Origin: an uncultured Gemmatimonadales bacterium
Lineage (GTDB): Bacteria > Gemmatimonadota > Gemmatimonadetes > Gemmatimonadales > Gemmatimonadaceae
Assembly (NCBI GenBank): GCA_963707505.1
Contig: CAVPQB010000006.1
Location: forward strand, 32,001 to 96,000
DNA length: 64,000 nt
Direction of reading: 5' to 3'
Part shown: piece by piece, positions 9,945 to 19,474 of the stretch
Layout: each line of letters starts with the position of its first letter
Position numbering within the stretch: the first letter of the stretch is position 1
The notes under the pieces: generated by a model
Databases searched by the model: none
The model's input: only the letters and a program-made list of their open reading frames with translations
Told to the model about the DNA's origin: nothing
Program-made: the position numbers and the translations under genes

Positions 9945-12719
<2,775 letters not shown>

Positions 12720-12726
12720 ATAAACT

Positions 12727-12786
12727 CGTCATTCCCGCGAAAGCGGGAATGACGCCTTTATTTAACCCGCTTTCGCGGGAATGACG
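12727..12786. repeat. CGTC-type REP palindrome pair
   Basis: CGTCATTCCCGC-GAAA-GCGGGAATGACG plus an inverted partial copy at 12766-12786. Confidence 0.8.
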
Positions 12787-12862
12787 ACGTGCGCTGCCTC
12801 TCAACGGTAGAACGGCCCGGCGTTTGCCTTTACAGGCTTACAACTCTCTCCGGAGGAACGCC

Positions 12863-13342
12863 ATGCACTCGCGAACCTTTCATACCCCACTGGCGGCGAT
12901 CGCGTTGCTCGCGACCGCATTCACGATCGCCCCGCTACGCGCTCCAGCGCAGGACACCACGTCCACCGATTACCGCGTGTCCATCGACGGAACGCCTGCC
13001 GGAACGGCGACGGCCGTGGTGAATCTTCCCGGCAACGCCGTCGTTCTGCATCAGAATTCCACTCCGAACCTGCCCTCCAAACAGATAGTGTCAGGAGACC
13101 AGGGCACAATCATGCTGACGACGACCGATCCCGGGCTCGTCTCCGCGATCCAGGCATGGATGAAAGCCGACAACGCGGGCTACAAGGACACCGTACAGCG
13201 CAAGACAGTCGAGATCGACCGCATCGGTGGTGGCGCCAATTCACGCACGCGTCTCTCCGGCGCGTGGCCCACCAAGCTGACGGCGGCAACTACAGGGAAT
13301 ACGATAACGATCGTGTATCAGCAGCTCGCGCCGGTGCCGTGA
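12863..13342 (+). CDS. Secreted protein resembling T4 gp19-like / eCIS tail tube proteins
   Basis: GGAGG RBS and a Sec signal peptide; motifs YRVSIDG, IQAWMK, QRKTVEI, LSGAWPTKL, ITIVYQQL. The CDS is solid; the family call is by eye. Confidence 0.55.
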   Translation: MHSRTFHTPLAAIALLATAFTIAPLRAPAQDTTSTDYRVSIDGTPAGTATAVVNLPGNAVVLHQNSTPNLPSKQIVSGDQGTIMLTTTDPGLVSAIQAWMKADNAGYKDTVQRKTVEIDRIGGGANSRTRLSGAWPTKLTAATTGNTITIVYQQLAPVP

Positions 13343-13447
13343 TCGTCACTTGCCCTGACTCGCGAGAGACTGGGGCCGCAGCGAAATCGGCGGCCAGATA
13401 AAATCCCCGCTTGCGCGATCGTCGCTATCACCACAATTTTATTTTCG

Positions 13448-13561
13448 ATGCGCCACTCTTCTCCCGCAACGCGATTTTATTATTACGCCAGCTACTGGGG
13501 ACTCCCCCAGGGTGTAATCGTCGCACGCGGGTACTTGGCCAGGTCAGGACAGCAAGGCTAG
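13448..13561 (+). CDS. Aromatic amino acid leader peptide (37 aa)
   Basis: [37 protein letters not shown]; the F-Y-Y-Y-x-x-Y-W cluster lies just upstream of a terminator and the DAHP synthase operon. Confidence 0.85.
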
Positions 13562-13627
13562 AAGTACCGAAGCAGCGCTCTCGATATCACGCCCTGGGGA
13601 TTCAATCCTCAGGGCTTTTTTGTTTTT
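13495..13627 (+). promoter_or_regulatory. Transcription attenuator of the aroF-pheA-aroH-thrC operon
   Basis: Protector CTGGGG/CCCCAG (13495-13510); 11-bp antiterminator 13505-13515/13589-13599; terminator 13591-13615 with T tail. Confidence 0.8.
13591..13627 (+). terminator. Attenuator terminator hairpin
   Basis: GCCCTGGGGA-TTCAA-TCCTCAGGGC-TTTTTTGTTTTT, about 25 nt before the aroF start. Confidence 0.9.
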
Positions 13628-13652
13628 CCGACCGATCCACCGAGGCTCCAAA

Positions 13653-14642
13653 ATGTCCCAGTCAGCTCCTGAGTACGCGTTAGCCGCGCACCCAACCACC
13701 GTTGGCGACGCCAGATCGTCGACGAAACCCGTTCGCGTGACTCCCACGCTTGTCATTGGCGGTCACGACGTAGTCGTCGCGGCCGGCCCGTGCTCCGTCG
13801 AGGGATACGACATGCTCCTCGCCAGCGCGCGCCACGTGCAGTCGGTCGGTGGCACACTGCTGCGCGGCGGCGCTTTCAAGCCGCGTACATCTCCCTATGC
13901 ATTTCAGGGACTCGGCGAGGAAGGGCTTCTGCTGCTCGCATCGGTCCGCGAGCAGACTGGGATGCCGATCGTTACCGAAGTGATGGATACCCGCCAGGTC
14001 GCGCGCGTCGCACAGATCGCAGATGTCATTCAGGTCGGCGCGCGCAACATGCAGAACTTCCCGCTGCTGGCCGAGTTGGGACGCGCAGGAAAACCGGTAC
14101 TCCTCAAACGCGGCGCATCGGCGCGAATTTCGGAGCTTCTGCTTGCTGCCGAGTATGTGATGGCGAACGGGAACGAGCGCGTGATACTGTGCGAGCGCGG
14201 TATTCGAACGTTCGAGACGATCACCCGCAACACACTCGATATCTCAGCGATCCCCGTGCTGAAAGCCGAGACGCATCTTCCCGTGATCGTCGACCCGAGT
14301 CATGCAGGTGGTCGTGCGGATCTCGTGCTGCCGCTCGCCCTCGCCGCGATCGCCGCTGGCGCTGATGGATTGATCGTCGAGGTCCACCCCGATCCATCAG
14401 TAGCGCGCTCAGACGCAGATCAGCAGCTGACGTTCGCCCAGTTCACCGATCTCATGCACGGCATCTCACTGATCGCCGCCGCGAGCAACCGCACGGTCCG
14501 TACGTCGATTCCCTCTCCGGTCGTGCCGAACATCGCGGCGACCGATGTCACCGACAGGCCGCACGCCCCACGGCGGCGTGGAGAGGAGACGCCTGCGGAG
14601 GAGACTCTTGCCGAGGAGACTCTTGCAGTGGTGGCCGCATGA
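13653..14642 (+). CDS. aroF: DAHP synthase, type I-beta, without an N-terminal regulatory domain
   Basis: [36 protein letters not shown] and VDPSH motifs. Confidence 0.92.
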
Positions 14643-15313
14643 TCGCGACACACAGCTCGACCGCGCGACTCTCTTCCACGCGTGAACACTCCGACGACGG
14701 TATCCACGTTGCATTTCAGGGCGAGCTCGGCGCATACGGAGATCAGGCCATCGCGCAACGCTGGCACGGCGATGCGGTGCCAGCGCCATCGGCATCCTTC
14801 GAGCACGTAGTGGCCGATGTCGCGTGGGAGATAGCCGATTTCGGGATACTCCCCGTGTGGAACTCGGTGGTGGGCGACATCGCGGCCGGATGTGCAGCCG
14901 TCAAGCTTGCCAGGAGCTCACCATATGGGCTCGTCGTGATCGGCGACACCCACGTCGTCGTGCGACATCATCTGCTCGCCCTTCCAGGCAGCCGAGTCGA
15001 TTACATCGAATCCGTGACCAGTCATCCCGTCGCGCTCGCGCAGTGCGGCAAGTTCCTCGCGGCGCATCCGAAGATCAAGCCGATATCGGGATATGACACC
15101 GCCGGTGCTGCTCGTGACCTGGTGATGCATGGGACACGTAATGCGGCCGCGATCGCAGGCCGCGTCGCTGCCGAACGCTACGGTCTCATCATACTCGAAG
15201 CGGACATCCAGGATGTCCCCGACAACGTGACACACTTTCTCATACTGGCGCGTCCGGTACGTAAAAGCGGCGAATCGCGCATGCCGCGCGTGAGCGAGAT
15301 CGTTCGATGGTGA
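14639..15313 (+). CDS. pheA: Prephenate dehydratase, catalytic domain only
   Basis: [25 protein letters not shown] and DNVTHF motifs; ends before any ACT domain; ATGA overlap with aroF. Confidence 0.85.
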
Positions 15314-15738
15314 CCACACCCGACCTGGACGCGTGGCGAGTGCGAGCAGTCCGCGGCGCAACAACGGTCGCTGGAGACAATCAGCTGCTCGTCCATGACG
15401 CCATACGCGAGCTCCTGACCACTCTGATGGCGCACAACGACATCAGGAAAAACGACATCGTCAGCGCAGTGTTCACCGCCACGACCGACCTGCGTTCCGC
15501 CTTCCCCGCTACCGCCGCGCGCGACCTCGGCTGGAACGACGTGCCGATGCTGTGCGCGTCGGAGATCGATGTTCCGGATGCCCAGCCACGCTGTCTTCGC
15601 GTGCTCCTGCACGTCGAGCGTCGCGTCTCCCAACCGCCGCTCGTTCCGATTTACCTCCGCGACGCCGCATCGCTCAGACCGGATCTGTCGGCCGCATCTC
15701 AGCGCGAGCCGGAGCTGGCGGGAATGGCGCAGAGTTGA
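15307..15738 (+). CDS. aroH: Chorismate mutase, AroH class
   Basis: VRAVRGATTV, FTATTDL, FPATAAR, VPMLC and SLRPDL motifs. Confidence 0.92.
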   Translation: MVTTPDLDAWRVRAVRGATTVAGDNQLLVHDAIRELLTTLMAHNDIRKNDIVSAVFTATTDLRSAFPATAARDLGWNDVPMLCASEIDVPDAQPRCLRVLLHVERRVSQPPLVPIYLRDAASLRPDLSAASQREPELAGMAQS

Positions 15739-15752
15739 TATATCCACTTGTA

Positions 15753-16862
15753 ATGCCATCAGGGAAATCCGAACTCACGCATGTCGGTGCCAGGCCTCGC
15801 ACAGCGCGCGGCGTTCTGGCTCGCTACGCAGAATTTCTTCCGCTGACTGCAGCGACCCCCGCCCTGTCTCTCGCAGAGGGCGACACCCCCTTGCTCGCAG
15901 CTCCGCGCCTTGCAAAGTGGGTTGGCGTGGATGACCTGCACCTCAAGTACGAAGGTGCCAATCCGAGCGGATCGTTCAAGGATCGCGGAATGGTCGTCGC
16001 CGTCGCCAAGGCGATCGAGGCCGGCTCGACGACGATAATCTGTGCATCCACGGGCAACACCTCGGCAAGTGCCGCTGCTTACGCGGCGCACGCAGGCATC
16101 AAGGCTGTAGTTTTGCTGCCCGCCGGAAAGGTTGCGCGAGGCAAGCTTGCGCAAGCTATCATGGCTGGTGCGACGGTGATCACGCTCGAGGGAAACTTCG
16201 ACCAGGCACTCACGGTCGCGCGCGATCTCGCACGTGATTACCGCGTCGCGCTCGTGAACTCGGTCAATCCACATCGCATAGCTGGCCAGACGACGGCGGC
16301 GTTCGAAGTGTGCGACGTGCTCGGCGATGCACCGGAAGTTGTCGCGTTACCCGTCGGTAATGGCGGTAACGTCACCGCGTATTCGGAAGGCTTCCGCATA
16401 TACCGGGACGCGAACCGGAGCACACGCATGCCCGTGTTCATCGGCGCACAGGCCGCCGGCGCCGCTCCGCTTGTTCACGGCGCACCGGTCGCGAACCCCG
16501 AAACTGTTGCGACCGCGATACGAATCGGCAATCCGGCCAGCTGGACGTCGGCGGTGAATGCGGTAACGTCATCGGGTGGCGAATTCAGCGCCGTCACCGA
16601 CGATGAAATTCTCGAATCGTATCACAGGGTCGCTGAGCTCGAAGGCGTATTCTGCGAGCCCGCCTCCGCCGCAGGGATCGCTGCACTCAGAATCGCTGTT
16701 CGCAACGGACGTGTTGCGCCAGGAATGCGCGCTGTCTGCGTGCTTACCGGCAACGGACTGAAAGATCCCGATCGTGCGGTGCCGGAATCGTTTACTCCTG
16801 CGATTCTTCCAGCTGACGCGACAGCGCTCGCCAGACAGCTGCATCTGACACGACTGTCGTGA
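15753..16862 (+). CDS. thrC: Threonine synthase (short type)
   Basis: EGDTPL, NPSGSFKDRGM, CASTGNTSASAAAY, PVGNGGN, ATAIRIGNP and LTGNGLKDP motifs. Confidence 0.9.
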   Translation: MPSGKSELTHVGARPRTARGVLARYAEFLPLTAATPALSLAEGDTPLLAAPRLAKWVGVDDLHLKYEGANPSGSFKDRGMVVAVAKAIEAGSTTIICASTGNTSASAAAYAAHAGIKAVVLLPAGKVARGKLAQAIMAGATVITLEGNFDQALTVARDLARDYRVALVNSVNPHRIAGQTTAAFEVCDVLGDAPEVVALPVGNGGNVTAYSEGFRIYRDANRSTRMPVFIGAQAAGAAPLVHGAPVANPETVATAIRIGNPASWTSAVNAVTSSGGEFSAVTDDEILESYHRVAELEGVFCEPASAAGIAALRIAVRNGRVAPGMRAVCVLTGNGLKDPDRAVPESFTPAILPADATALARQLHLTRLS

Positions 16863-16900
16863 ATCACAGCGCCACGACATATCCACGTGCAAACTCCTCC

Positions 16901-16929
16901 TTGCGGGCGCGAGTACGGAGCTGTATCGT
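16901..16929 (+). promoter_or_regulatory. Candidate promoter giving a leaderless transcript at ATG 16936
   Basis: TTGCGG-N17-TATCGT followed by 6 nt and then the leader ATG. Confidence 0.6.
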
Positions 16930-16935
16930 AGTTCA

Positions 16936-17022
16936 ATGCAGTCATTCAATCGCGCAAACAATGTGCTCCCATCCAATCCCAATCGAAACTGCTTGGGGCG
17001 GGTGATCGTGTTGCGCGGATGA
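16936..17022 (+). CDS. Asn-rich leader peptide (28 aa)
   Basis: MQSFNRANNVLPSNPNRNCLGRVIVLRG*; 6 Asn in residues 5-18; followed by a terminator and then tRNA-Asn. Confidence 0.75.
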   Translation: MQSFNRANNVLPSNPNRNCLGRVIVLRG

Positions 17023-17055
17023 TCTGACAGCACCAGACATTACCGTTACACATTC

Positions 17056-17092
17056 GCCCTTCCGAGCGGTCGCTCAGAAGGGCTTTTCGTTT
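17056..17092 (+). terminator. Attenuator terminator upstream of tRNA-Asn
   Basis: GCCCTTC-C-GAGC-GGTC-GCTC-A-GAAGGGC-TTTTCGTTT; the 5' arm region (17051-17060) can instead pair with 16995-17004. Confidence 0.85.
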
Positions 17093-17132
17093 AGAACTCG
17101 TCGCTGATTGCCGAAACTCAGGGCAATCCCGA

Positions 17133-17205
17133 TGGGGTGTAGGTCAATTGGCAGACCGCCCGACTGTTACTCGGGAAGTTGCAGGTTCGAATCCCGCCGC
17201 CCCAG
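17133..17205 (+). tRNA. tRNA-Asn (GTT)
   Basis: Cloverleaf: acceptor TGGGGTG/CGCCCCA, D arm GGTC/GACC, anticodon arm CCCGA-CTGTTAC-TCGGG, TTCGAAT loop, G73; CCA not encoded. Confidence 0.93.
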
Positions 17206-17395
17206 CTTGAAATACACGGTTACGATATCAACGCCCGAGTCGTATTGATGAATTCGGAGCCATTCCACACAGCCCTGGCGACGACTGGCGGCATGCCAGC
17301 CGGCGCAAACTGCTAATGAAGTCAGCCCCACTTCAGCGCCTTGATATCCACCCTGCCACTCGGCAGGGACTGCGTAGCAGCGTCACCGCGACTCT

Positions 17396-19474
17396 GTGAC
17401 CCCAATGCGCACGTCTCGGGCGCACGTGAGCCCGTCAACCCCGACGCAAGTCGCCCGCGAGACAACCTCTGTCTGGGAGATCGGGCTCTTCCTGCTGGCG
17501 ACCGCGTGCTTCGCGGGATATCTCGTCTGGGTCGGCTTCGACAGTATGGGAGGCGGCAGCACCGCGTCCCGCGTTCCGATCGTTACCCAGTCGCTGCTGT
17601 TCGTCCTCTCGATGCTGACCGCTGTCCTCTGCGCTATCGTGTCTGGACACGGCCTCGATCGAGCCACGCGGCGGGCATGGCTCTTCTTCGCCATCGCGCA
17701 GATTGCGACCGGAATCGTCAGCCTGTCATGGGTTTACCGCCTCGCATCCGGCAGTGGCGTCGCTGGACCACTGGCGCTCCAACTGATCGCCGCGACGTAC
17801 GACGTTTTCCTGCTGGCGGCCCTCGTCACGTTCCCTGTCCGGCGCATGGCCAGTGGCGACCGGTCGACGTTCTGGTTCGATGGTGCAATCGTCGCCGGCG
17901 TCGCGGCGCTGCTGACGTGGCATTTACTACTACGCGCTGCCCTCGTCGCGGCCGGATCGGACTGGCGCACCGCCATGTATGCGTTGGCCTACCCGGTAGC
18001 GGATGTGGTGCTTCTGTTCGCAGCAGTGGTGCTGTTGCTCCGGCGCCCGTTACCGGGAAGTCTGCGGTCCATTCGCATCATTGGCGTCAGCATTCTTCTT
18101 AACACAGCCGCCGATCTGCTCTACATGTGGGCATACATCGCACATGAATCCCAGGCCGGTCGGTTCTTCTATGTGGTGTGGGCGGTCGTTGCGTGGATGG
18201 CCACGGCCGCGGTGTTCGCCCAGTGCCAGAATCTGCAGCAGGATTTCGGGTCGGTACATCTCACGTCGCATGAGCGGCGCAATCATCCGCAAAGCCTCAT
18301 TCCGTATCTGGCGATAGCAGCCATTTACGCAACGCTGATAGTCGAGGCATTTCGAACCGAGGCTCACGCTGCAGTCGTTTCGCCAGTTGCTCACCGGCTG
18401 TCCATCGCCGCGGACTTCCCCGTCACCACGATTGTCGTCGGAGCGATGGTGGTGACAGCGATCGTGATTGCGCGTCAGGTTGCGGCGCAGCGAAGAAACG
18501 CCGAGCTCGTGCGCGAGCGACTCGCACGTGAGGCGCACTTCCGTGCGCTCGTCCAGCATTCGTCCGACATGGTGCTGGTGCTCGAAGCAGATGGAACGGT
18601 ACGCGAGGCCAGCCCCGCGGTCGCGCGCGTTCTCGGTCACGCGCCCCAAAAAGTCGTGGGACGCACATTCTGGGAGTTCTTCGTCTCCGACGACATGGCG
18701 GTCGTTCAGGCCGATATCGCGCAAGCCATCGCCGCTGGCGACGGAGAGGTCACCGCGAGCGGCCCGTGCGAGTGGCGCATCCGCGCGGCCAACGGCAGTG
18801 AGCGATGGGTCGAAGCCATCTGCACGAACCTGCTCGACGATCCCGTCGTGATGGGGCTCGTCATCAACGGGCGTGACGTCAGCGAGCGCAAGCAGCTGGA
18901 AGTCGAGCTCACGCATCGCGCATATCACGATACTCTCACCGGGTTGGTGAATCGCACACGCTTCCGCGCAAAGGTCGTCGACGCCATCGCTCGCACCAAA
19001 TCCGGCAAAAGACCCGATGACGGACGGAGCGGGCTCGCAATTCTCTACATCGATCTCGATGGCTTCAAGGCTGTCAACGACATCTTCGGACATGACGCCG
19101 GCGATCTGGTCCTTGCAACGATCGCCGATCGCCTGCGCGACGCTACCCGCGGCTCCGATACCGCTGCACGGCTTGGGGGCGATGAATTCGCGATTCTGCT
19201 GGAGCGCCTGCGAGACGCGGATGAAGTTCGCATGGTTGCGAAACGCGTATTACACCTCGTGCGCGGTCCGATCAGAATCGATCACCGGGACGTTGTGGTC
19301 GGCGCCAGCATCGGAATCGTGTGCACCTCACTCGGCGACACAACCAGGGAACGCGAACGCGCGATAGATCCCGACGTCCTGCTGCGCAACGCAGACTCTG
19401 CGATGTACGCCGCGAAGGCCCGGGGACGCGGGAATTACGAGTTTTTCGTTCCCGTCGCGGGCGAGATTGTGTGA
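17396..19474 (+). CDS. Membrane-bound PAS + GGDEF diguanylate cyclase
   Basis: Multi-TM N-terminus, PAS domain, DLDGFKAVND, RLGGDEF, ADSAMYAAK; no EAL domain. Confidence 0.9.
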   Translation: MTPMRTSRAHVSPSTPTQVARETTSVWEIGLFLLATACFAGYLVWVGFDSMGGGSTASRVPIVTQSLLFVLSMLTAVLCAIVSGHGLDRATRRAWLFFAIAQIATGIVSLSWVYRLASGSGVAGPLALQLIAATYDVFLLAALVTFPVRRMASGDRSTFWFDGAIVAGVAALLTWHLLLRAALVAAGSDWRTAMYALAYPVADVVLLFAAVVLLLRRPLPGSLRSIRIIGVSILLNTAADLLYMWAYIAHESQAGRFFYVVWAVVAWMATAAVFAQCQNLQQDFGSVHLTSHERRNHPQSLIPYLAIAAIYATLIVEAFRTEAHAAVVSPVAHRLSIAADFPVTTIVVGAMVVTAIVIARQVAAQRRNAELVRERLAREAHFRALVQHSSDMVLVLEADGTVREASPAVARVLGHAPQKVVGRTFWEFFVSDDMAVVQADIAQAIAAGDGEVTASGPCEWRIRAANGSERWVEAICTNLLDDPVVMGLVINGRDVSERKQLEVELTHRAYHDTLTGLVNRTRFRAKVVDAIARTKSGKRPDDGRSGLAILYIDLDGFKAVNDIFGHDAGDLVLATIADRLRDATRGSDTAARLGGDEFAILLERLRDADEVRMVAKRVLHLVRGPIRIDHRDVVVGASIGIVCTSLGDTTRERERAIDPDVLLRNADSAMYAAKARGRGNYEFFVPVAGEIV

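Follow-up and report, generated by a model that had tools for sequence, protein, structure and literature searches.

Two probable ribosome-dependent attenuators in a Gemmatimonadota genome, one ahead of an aromatic operon and one ahead of a second tRNA-Asn gene

Introduction

Two short open reading frames (ORFs), each followed by an intrinsic terminator, raise the question of whether one regulatory device has been used twice in the same locus, and of what each copy controls. They lie 3.5 kb apart in a window of 64,000 nucleotides from an uncultured Gemmatimonadales bacterium (assembly GCA_963707505.1, contig CAVPQB010000006.1, positions 32,001 to 96,000; coordinates below are those of the window). 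Leader 1 (13448..13561, plus strand, 37 residues) precedes an aromatic biosynthesis operon, and leader 2 (16936..17022, plus strand, 28 residues) precedes a gene for tRNA-Asn(GUU), which the initial annotation of the locus had not named as its target. That annotation had noted that both peptides read VIVxRG at residues 23-28, and had proposed a reusable, probably leaderless attenuator chassis with swapped sensor codons, in which the motif would be either a nascent-peptide pause signal or an RNA-level constraint. The evidence presented here makes it highly likely that the two leaders are distinct transcription attenuators of the classical kind in Gemmatimonadota, with transcripts that are probably leaderless, that leader 2 governs a second tRNA-Asn, and that VIVxRG is incidental.

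Control by a leader peptide is established for operons of biosynthesis and of synthetases, and the general view of bacterial tRNA genes is that their promoters determine expression. A tRNA gene whose transcription depended on ribosomes translating the codons that it serves would act as a direct homeostat for a single tRNA pool.

Results

The tRNA-Asn(GUU) gene (17133..17206, plus strand), detected by the tRNA search and by the Rfam scan, begins 50 nt 3' of the stem of the leader 2 terminator. It is the second copy in the genome, and the other tRNA-Asn has no such leader. Leader 2 contains six Asn codons (N5, N8, N9, N14, N16 and N18), an enrichment with a P of about 1e-4 at the Asn frequency of the genome. 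A pattern scan for this type of tRNA-Asn returned at least 120 loci, 117 of them with 260 nt of upstream sequence, in which a leader was called when an ATG or GTG ORF of 12-45 codons had at least three Asn and at least 12% Asn. Among the matches listed, to which all counts of these loci refer, 50 of 117 carry an Asn-rich leader, compared with 0 of 117 on the reverse strand and 0 of 76 in a far-upstream window, and 78 of the 80 named records with this type of tRNA-Asn are from Gemmatimonadota. All 50 peptides are distinct, and their Asn codons are divided between AAT (118) and AAC (91). The same ORF criterion applied to Asp, Gln, His, Tyr, Phe and Cys selected 0-6 loci, with Lys reaching 14 and Glu 22, largely gene ends.

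Many of these ORFs may begin on a leaderless transcript. In 28 of the 50 leaders a -10-like hexamer (YAnnnT) is found 5-8 nt before an in-frame start, versus a background of 6.5%, and in leader 2 itself a promoter-like site (16901..16929, plus strand; TTGCGG, 17-nt spacer, TATCGT) is followed by the ATG 6 nt further on. It might be argued that leader 2 is untranslated, a mere promoter leader of the tRNA with a leaky terminator and with Asn codons as a by-product of A/C-rich sequence, and the absence of the ATG in one orthologue favours this. It is nonetheless very unlikely: an open frame with ATG or GTG, at least three Asn and a stop at the antiterminator recurs in 50 distinct loci and in none of the controls, most other amino acids reach the criterion rarely, and both Asn codons are used.

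A conserved protein gene 3' of the tRNA-Asn was also considered as the true target and rejected. At the 31 of 50 loci with enough DNA (41 ORFs scanned), the downstream ORFs belong to unrelated families and, therefore, the tRNA is the only constant target. Seven genomes of the genus that carry the leader also carry a second tRNA-Asn type. Because leader 2 is Asn-rich and such leaders stand ahead of tRNA-Asn in many Gemmatimonadota, this tRNA is probably made on demand, and the best reading of leader 2 is ribosome-mediated attenuation of a second, inducible tRNA-Asn.

Asn codons were also found upstream of other tRNA-Asn genes. In two genomes (L048 in G005, L057 in G019) a different upstream ORF with three Asn codons and a terminator lies 205-100 nt before a third tRNA-Asn type, and in another (L047 in G039) yet another upstream ORF precedes a tRNA-Asn variant. 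The presence of such ORFs before different tRNA-Asn variants suggests repeated origin.

Both leaders have the elements of a switch, as described in the initial annotation. The two terminators have the form GCCCT...AGGGC-TTTT, that of leader 1 at 13591..13623 (stem 13591-13615; folding z -4.5; also found by the terminator scan) and that of leader 2 at 17056..17092 (stem 17056-17083; z -4.0), each with its T tract on the plus strand. In both cases folding shows that the 5' arm of the terminator can pair with an upstream antiterminator, and that pairing is also possible between the CGCGG segment and the 5' part of the leader. The 5' strand of antiterminator 1 (13505..13531, plus strand) pairs with 13575-13599 in the fold of 13500-13630, and that of antiterminator 2 (16990..17019, plus strand) with 17042-17068, as supported by the folds and by pairing counts in the family. 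In leader 1 a small hairpin (13495..13510, plus strand), seen in the fold and in the consensus structure of the aromatic-leader alignment, would sequester the antiterminator 5' arm as an anti-antiterminator. The sensor codons fall within residues 5-18 of both leaders, being F10, Y11, Y12, Y13, Y16 and W17 in leader 1, which has a further Tyr at position 29.

Codon-by-codon folding with a ribosome placed on the leader predicts a switch at these codons. For leader 2 the terminator has a probability of 0.00-0.05 as long as codons 9-15 occupy the A site, of 0.83-1.0 once codon 16 is reached, and of 1.0 without a ribosome. For leader 1 the probability is 0.09-0.17 at F10 and Y11, about 0.45 at codons 14-16 and 1.0 from W17. 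The folding settles on termination once the ribosome has passed codon 17-19, and E. coli pheL, used as a control in the same test, gave a matching profile. Antiterminator and terminator are predicted to exclude each other, the former being available while the ribosome is on the sensor codons and masked after it has moved beyond them, clearly in leader 2 and partially in leader 1.

The structures are retained in relatives. The antiterminator helices of leader 1 have 97% and 96% of cells paired over 9 orthologues and are mostly invariant. Counted by family, the antiterminator pairs are kept in 82% of cells for the Asn leaders, with six two-sided changes (0 of 500 shuffles), and in 83% for the aromatic leaders, with six changes (20 of 500 shuffles). 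With the ribosome on the last Asn codons, the arm is sequestered above the level of shuffled sequences in 45 of 50 Asn leaders (median 0.87 versus 0.67), and T tracts are present in the terminators of this family. From these features both short ORFs look like genuine ribosome-speed sensors.

The shared motif was confirmed as VIVARG in leader 1 (13514-13531) and VIVLRG in leader 2 (17002-17019), at residues 23-28 of each; two of the five common residues have identical codons and three have codons that are synonymous at the third base only. To follow it in relatives, the upstream regions of 30 DAHP synthase loci were taken, the 15 that have an aromatic leader of the leader 1 type were aligned, and 9 Asn leaders from the same genus were aligned alongside. 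Upstream of one DAHP synthase match, in another family (L020 in G028), a Trp-rich leader with a terminator was seen about 330 nt away.

The proposal that VIVxRG is a nascent-peptide pause signal, and defines one attenuator family, draws on the rarity of the match: a same-register window with 5 of 6 identities arises just 14 times when leader 2 is put through 100,000 dinucleotide shuffles, for one pair chosen post hoc. VIV.RG as such occurs 12 times across the six frames of the genome. In the alignments VIVxRG is read in 4 of 15 aromatic and 2 of 9 Asn leaders, with VILLRG in two further Asn leaders. All carriers are the source genome and its three nearest relatives, in which the motif is retained in leader 1 and, as VIVLRG or VILLRG, in leader 2. 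GIIARG is found in a further orthologue, where it spans a gap of N. The three relatives are 93-95% identical in aroF and, therefore, have had little time to diverge, and all other orthologues change frame or stop sooner. The motif occurs in 0 of 50 wider Asn leaders (some of which overlap the genus set), 0 of 25 His leaders and 0 of 9 Leu leaders. When the ribosome stands on codons 23-28, the folding of leaders 1 and 2 alike already predicts the terminator with a probability of 1.0. A pause signal in the peptide is, thus, hardly credible. Leaders that act by nascent-peptide arrest, of which TnaC, ErmCL and SecM are examples, were also rejected as a class for these two, since no in-frame peptide motif is conserved among the orthologues.

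The same alignments indicate what is retained. Among the 10 closely alignable aromatic leaders, four read VIVARG, in five these bases fall in frame +1 or +2, and one is ambiguous at the N gap, and five of the nine Asn leaders place the motif bases in frame +2, one of these 3' of the stop. Pairing analysis locates the bases in the inner part of the antiterminator helix, and E. coli pheL has a similar run 3' of its antiterminator arm, beyond its stop codon. Because the motif bases shift frame, lie in the antiterminator helix and, in pheL, have their counterpart after the stop, the constraint acts on the RNA, so that this half of the original alternative was the right one. The best explanation of VIVxRG is a chance in-frame reading of antiterminator bases, composed of the G-rich arm and then a run of the TCG/GCGCG type. 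Such a run follows the antiterminator arm in 20 of 50 Asn, 5 of 11 aromatic, 14 of 21 His, 1 of 8 Leu and 1 of 2 E. coli leaders versus a background of 13%, figures obtained with a motif picked post hoc and with noisy anchoring; a role of the run in pausing RNA polymerase is only a guess.

It was then considered whether the two leaders descend from each other. A recent common ancestor, through local duplication or conversion followed by a swap of sensor codons, would account for the length, the terminator ends and the motif bases. The spacing of 3.5 kb, found likewise in G003, G015, G016 and G020, is in line with this, and the Asn leader of the source clade is longer than the usual type of 19-25 codons, with a layout like that of leader 1. 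Covariance models built on 9 aromatic and 7 Asn leaders gave mixed results. Run unfiltered, the Asn model scores leader 1 at 16.5 bits over its 3' half (13525-13620), the top non-self plus-strand match in 5.5 kb, and the aromatic model gives a full-length match to leader 2, a weak one at 3.8 bits (E 0.73). In genome-wide searches each model finds only itself and not the other leader. Whole-leader DNA similarity is marginal, with a P of about 0.05 with the terminator and 0.015 without it (2000 shuffles each), and terminators of the form GCCC...GGGC, as well as the downstream run, are also present in His leaders and in the wider Asn family. A direct swapped-codon origin, as first put forward, is for these reasons unlikely; on the sequences, the leaders may have a shared ancestry that is remote or local. 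A single family built on VIVxRG was rejected, given the failure of reciprocal detection and the absence of further members in the genome. Together with the loss of motif and register among orthologues, this is the outcome that the initial annotation itself had named as refuting its proposal.

Genome-wide scans for a short ORF followed by a terminator found His, Leu and Met-rich candidates and no other VIVxRG leader. The His-rich leader of the source genome lies before hisG (G000:C1:204207, L201) and the Leu-rich one before leuA (G000:C3:805137, L202); both are leaderless-like and conserved in relatives. A His leader is present at 25 of 29 hisG loci and a Leu leader at 9 of 10 leuA loci, and these leaders agree with leaders 1 and 2 in promoter-to-ATG geometry and in having GC-rich terminators. 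Unpublished genomes (G007 and G017) supply two of the His loci and are also included in the count of genomes with a second tRNA-Asn type; no main claim depends on them. What stands of the original interpretation, besides the RNA-level constraint, is that leaders 1 and 2 are probably leaderless, ribosome-dependent attenuators in one lineage-wide style, which is shared by the His and Leu leaders.

Leader 1 is probably a classical aromatic attenuator, ordinary in itself and a new member of that class, with aromatic-rich leaders at 15 aroF loci. The operon it precedes encodes, on the plus strand, a DAHP synthase of the aroF type (13653..14642; PF00793, TIGR01361 over cut-off), prephenate dehydratase (pheA, 14639..15313; PF00800), type I chorismate mutase (AroH, 15307..15738; PF07736) and threonine synthase (thrC, 15750..16862, start approximate; TIGR00260 over cut-off). 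The last gene, thrC, is placed between the two leaders, and the terminator scan found no terminator between it and leader 2. The promoter-like site of leader 1 (13411..13439, plus strand) consists of TTGCGC, a spacer of 17-18 nt and a weak -10; TTGCG and a -10 of the TAnnnT type are retained in several orthologues. As had been noted, TTGCG lies 37 nt (13411) and 35 nt (16901) 5' of the ATG in leaders 1 and 2, respectively. A strict sigma-70 scan gave 0 promoters, neither promoter-like site being called, and its terminator part listed the terminator of leader 1 and not that of leader 2. In the upstream flank, a two-way terminator (12727-12754) after an aconitase gene is followed by a 172-residue ORF (12824-13342) with no Pfam match.

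Other leader-like loci were seen elsewhere in the source genome. On the minus strand at G000:C6:158185 (L203), a repetitive, Met-rich ORF of 33 codons has a promoter-like site and a terminator-like hairpin, and this hairpin overlaps the beginning of an ORF for a membrane protein. On the plus strand at G000:C4:402360, an ORF of 34 codons with a promoter-like site and a terminator precedes a dehydrogenase-like gene and has no clear sensor codon. The region G000:C5:3857-13201 is a 94% copy of C4:1370872-1380210 in which aspS is frameshifted; the probable origin is strain duplication in the assembly or errors in its reads.

Discussion

The mechanism proposed for the two leaders follows the classical model of attenuation, from which translation of the ORFs, the leaderless start, the coupling to transcription, stalling on hungry codons and switching in vivo are taken over by analogy. 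A ribosome would start at the 5' AUG and trail the RNA polymerase. A stall at the sensor codons (about 9-16) would cover segment 1 and leave the G-rich segment of codons 20-28 to pair with the 5' arm of the terminator, allowing read-through; a ribosome that moves past codon 17-19 would cover the G-rich segment and the terminator would form. Leader 1 would in this way sense charged tRNA-Phe, tRNA-Tyr and tRNA-Trp and control aroF-pheA-aroH(-thrC), and leader 2 would sense Asn-tRNA and control the auxiliary tRNA-Asn gene. For the latter the outcome would be a negative feedback, with transcription of tRNA-Asn set by the efficiency with which Asn codons are decoded.

Several observations weigh against this interpretation. 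By the criterion used, 67 of the 117 tRNA-Asn loci have no leader, 28 of these following a dnaJ-like gene and several having borderline leaders. One genome that is 98% complete (G011) shows only the leader-bearing tRNA-Asn by the pattern used and, therefore, the label auxiliary is not universal. In the orthologue without the ATG (L035 in G003), AGG stands at that position, with Asn codons and hairpins retained. The folding is an equilibrium calculation with a fixed 9-nt mask for the ribosome, and for leader 1 it gives a terminator probability of 0.98 at Y12 and Y13, where read-through is, thus, not predicted at equilibrium. Antiterminator covariation is weak in both the Asn and the aromatic sets, whose members are kin and not independent, and shuffled controls often sequester the GC-rich arm too, as their median of 0.67 indicates. 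A cruder automated switch test was passed by 37 of 54 Asn, 6 of 13 aromatic, 1 of 24 His and 5 of 9 Leu leaders, and was failed by E. coli hisL. Lastly, a chance reading of VIVxRG leaves the same-register match, at 14 in 100,000 shuffles, unexplained in detail.

The reason for gating a tRNA-Asn gene may be simple dosage. Alternatively, the attenuated tRNA-Asn could be a specialised isoacceptor, induced on Asn shortage as the carrier on which AspRS and GatCAB carry out tRNA-dependent synthesis of Asn; if so, the attenuator would act on a biosynthetic pathway by way of the tRNA that is its cofactor. The attenuated tRNA has C38, G2-C71, U1-A72 and G73, and the housekeeping copy has A38 and C2-G71. 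C38 and G2-C71 are listed as aspartate identity elements, U1-A72 serves amidation, and t6A37 is an antideterminant for AspRS in yeast (PMC9976931). It has also been shown that a single AspRS, acting with GatCAB, is able to make Asn alongside AsnRS (PMC4206432). C38 is found in 14 of 50 leader-bearing and 6 of 67 other loci (Fisher P 0.012, for kin that are not independent), and GatB is present in the source genome. Neither AsnA nor the GlnRS C-terminal family was found in this genome, which is 83% complete, and GatCAB may therefore simply serve Gln. Against a specialised isoacceptor, A38 is the base in 36 of 50 leader-bearing tRNA-Asn, the source genome encodes AsnRS and two AsnB-family proteins, and its AspRS is without the His of what we take to be the non-discriminating signature. 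This role is, on balance, doubtful.

An attenuated tRNA-Asn of this kind would be conserved across a soil-abundant phylum, and the recurrence of Asn raises the question of why tRNA-Asn needs such control. No report of a leader-peptide attenuator of a tRNA gene was found in the literature searched, which contained few subscription papers.

With the attenuators of E. coli the two leaders share a short ORF with cognate codons and, by prediction, mutually exclusive antiterminator and terminator, the predicted switch profile being like that of pheL. Leader 1 is close to pheL-pheA also in that it would control aromatic biosynthesis. Nonetheless, both differ from pheL and from the further classical leaders hisL, trpL, leuL and thrL in their leaderless-like start and in the absence of a match to the Rfam leader families (His, Leu, Phe, Thr and Trp) or to T-box in 12700-17500 and in 12 related loci, where only tRNA scored above threshold. 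Moreover, leader 1 mixes Phe, Tyr and Trp, and the target of leader 2 is a tRNA gene and not an enzyme.

T-boxes have been reported before tRNA genes in clostridia. The targets of T-box riboswitches named in the accessible part of one survey are synthetase, transport and biosynthesis genes (PMC2494555). These riboswitches likewise respond to the charged state of one specific tRNA by switching a terminator, whereas here the sensor would be a translated ORF. Attenuators of aminoacyl-tRNA synthetase genes, such as pheST and those predicted for trpS and leuS in Streptomyces (PMC1262725), share with leader 2, as proposed here, the feedback on the supply of one charged tRNA through ribosome speed on its codons, but the target here is the tRNA gene itself and the amino acid is Asn. 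The leaderless polycysteine short ORFs of mycobacteria are attenuators that control translation initiation of a protein gene (10.1101/834739). They would share with the present leaders the use of a leaderless short ORF as amino acid sensor, with several loci of the same style in one genome, and differ from them in that here an intrinsic terminator would be switched and one of the two targets is non-coding.

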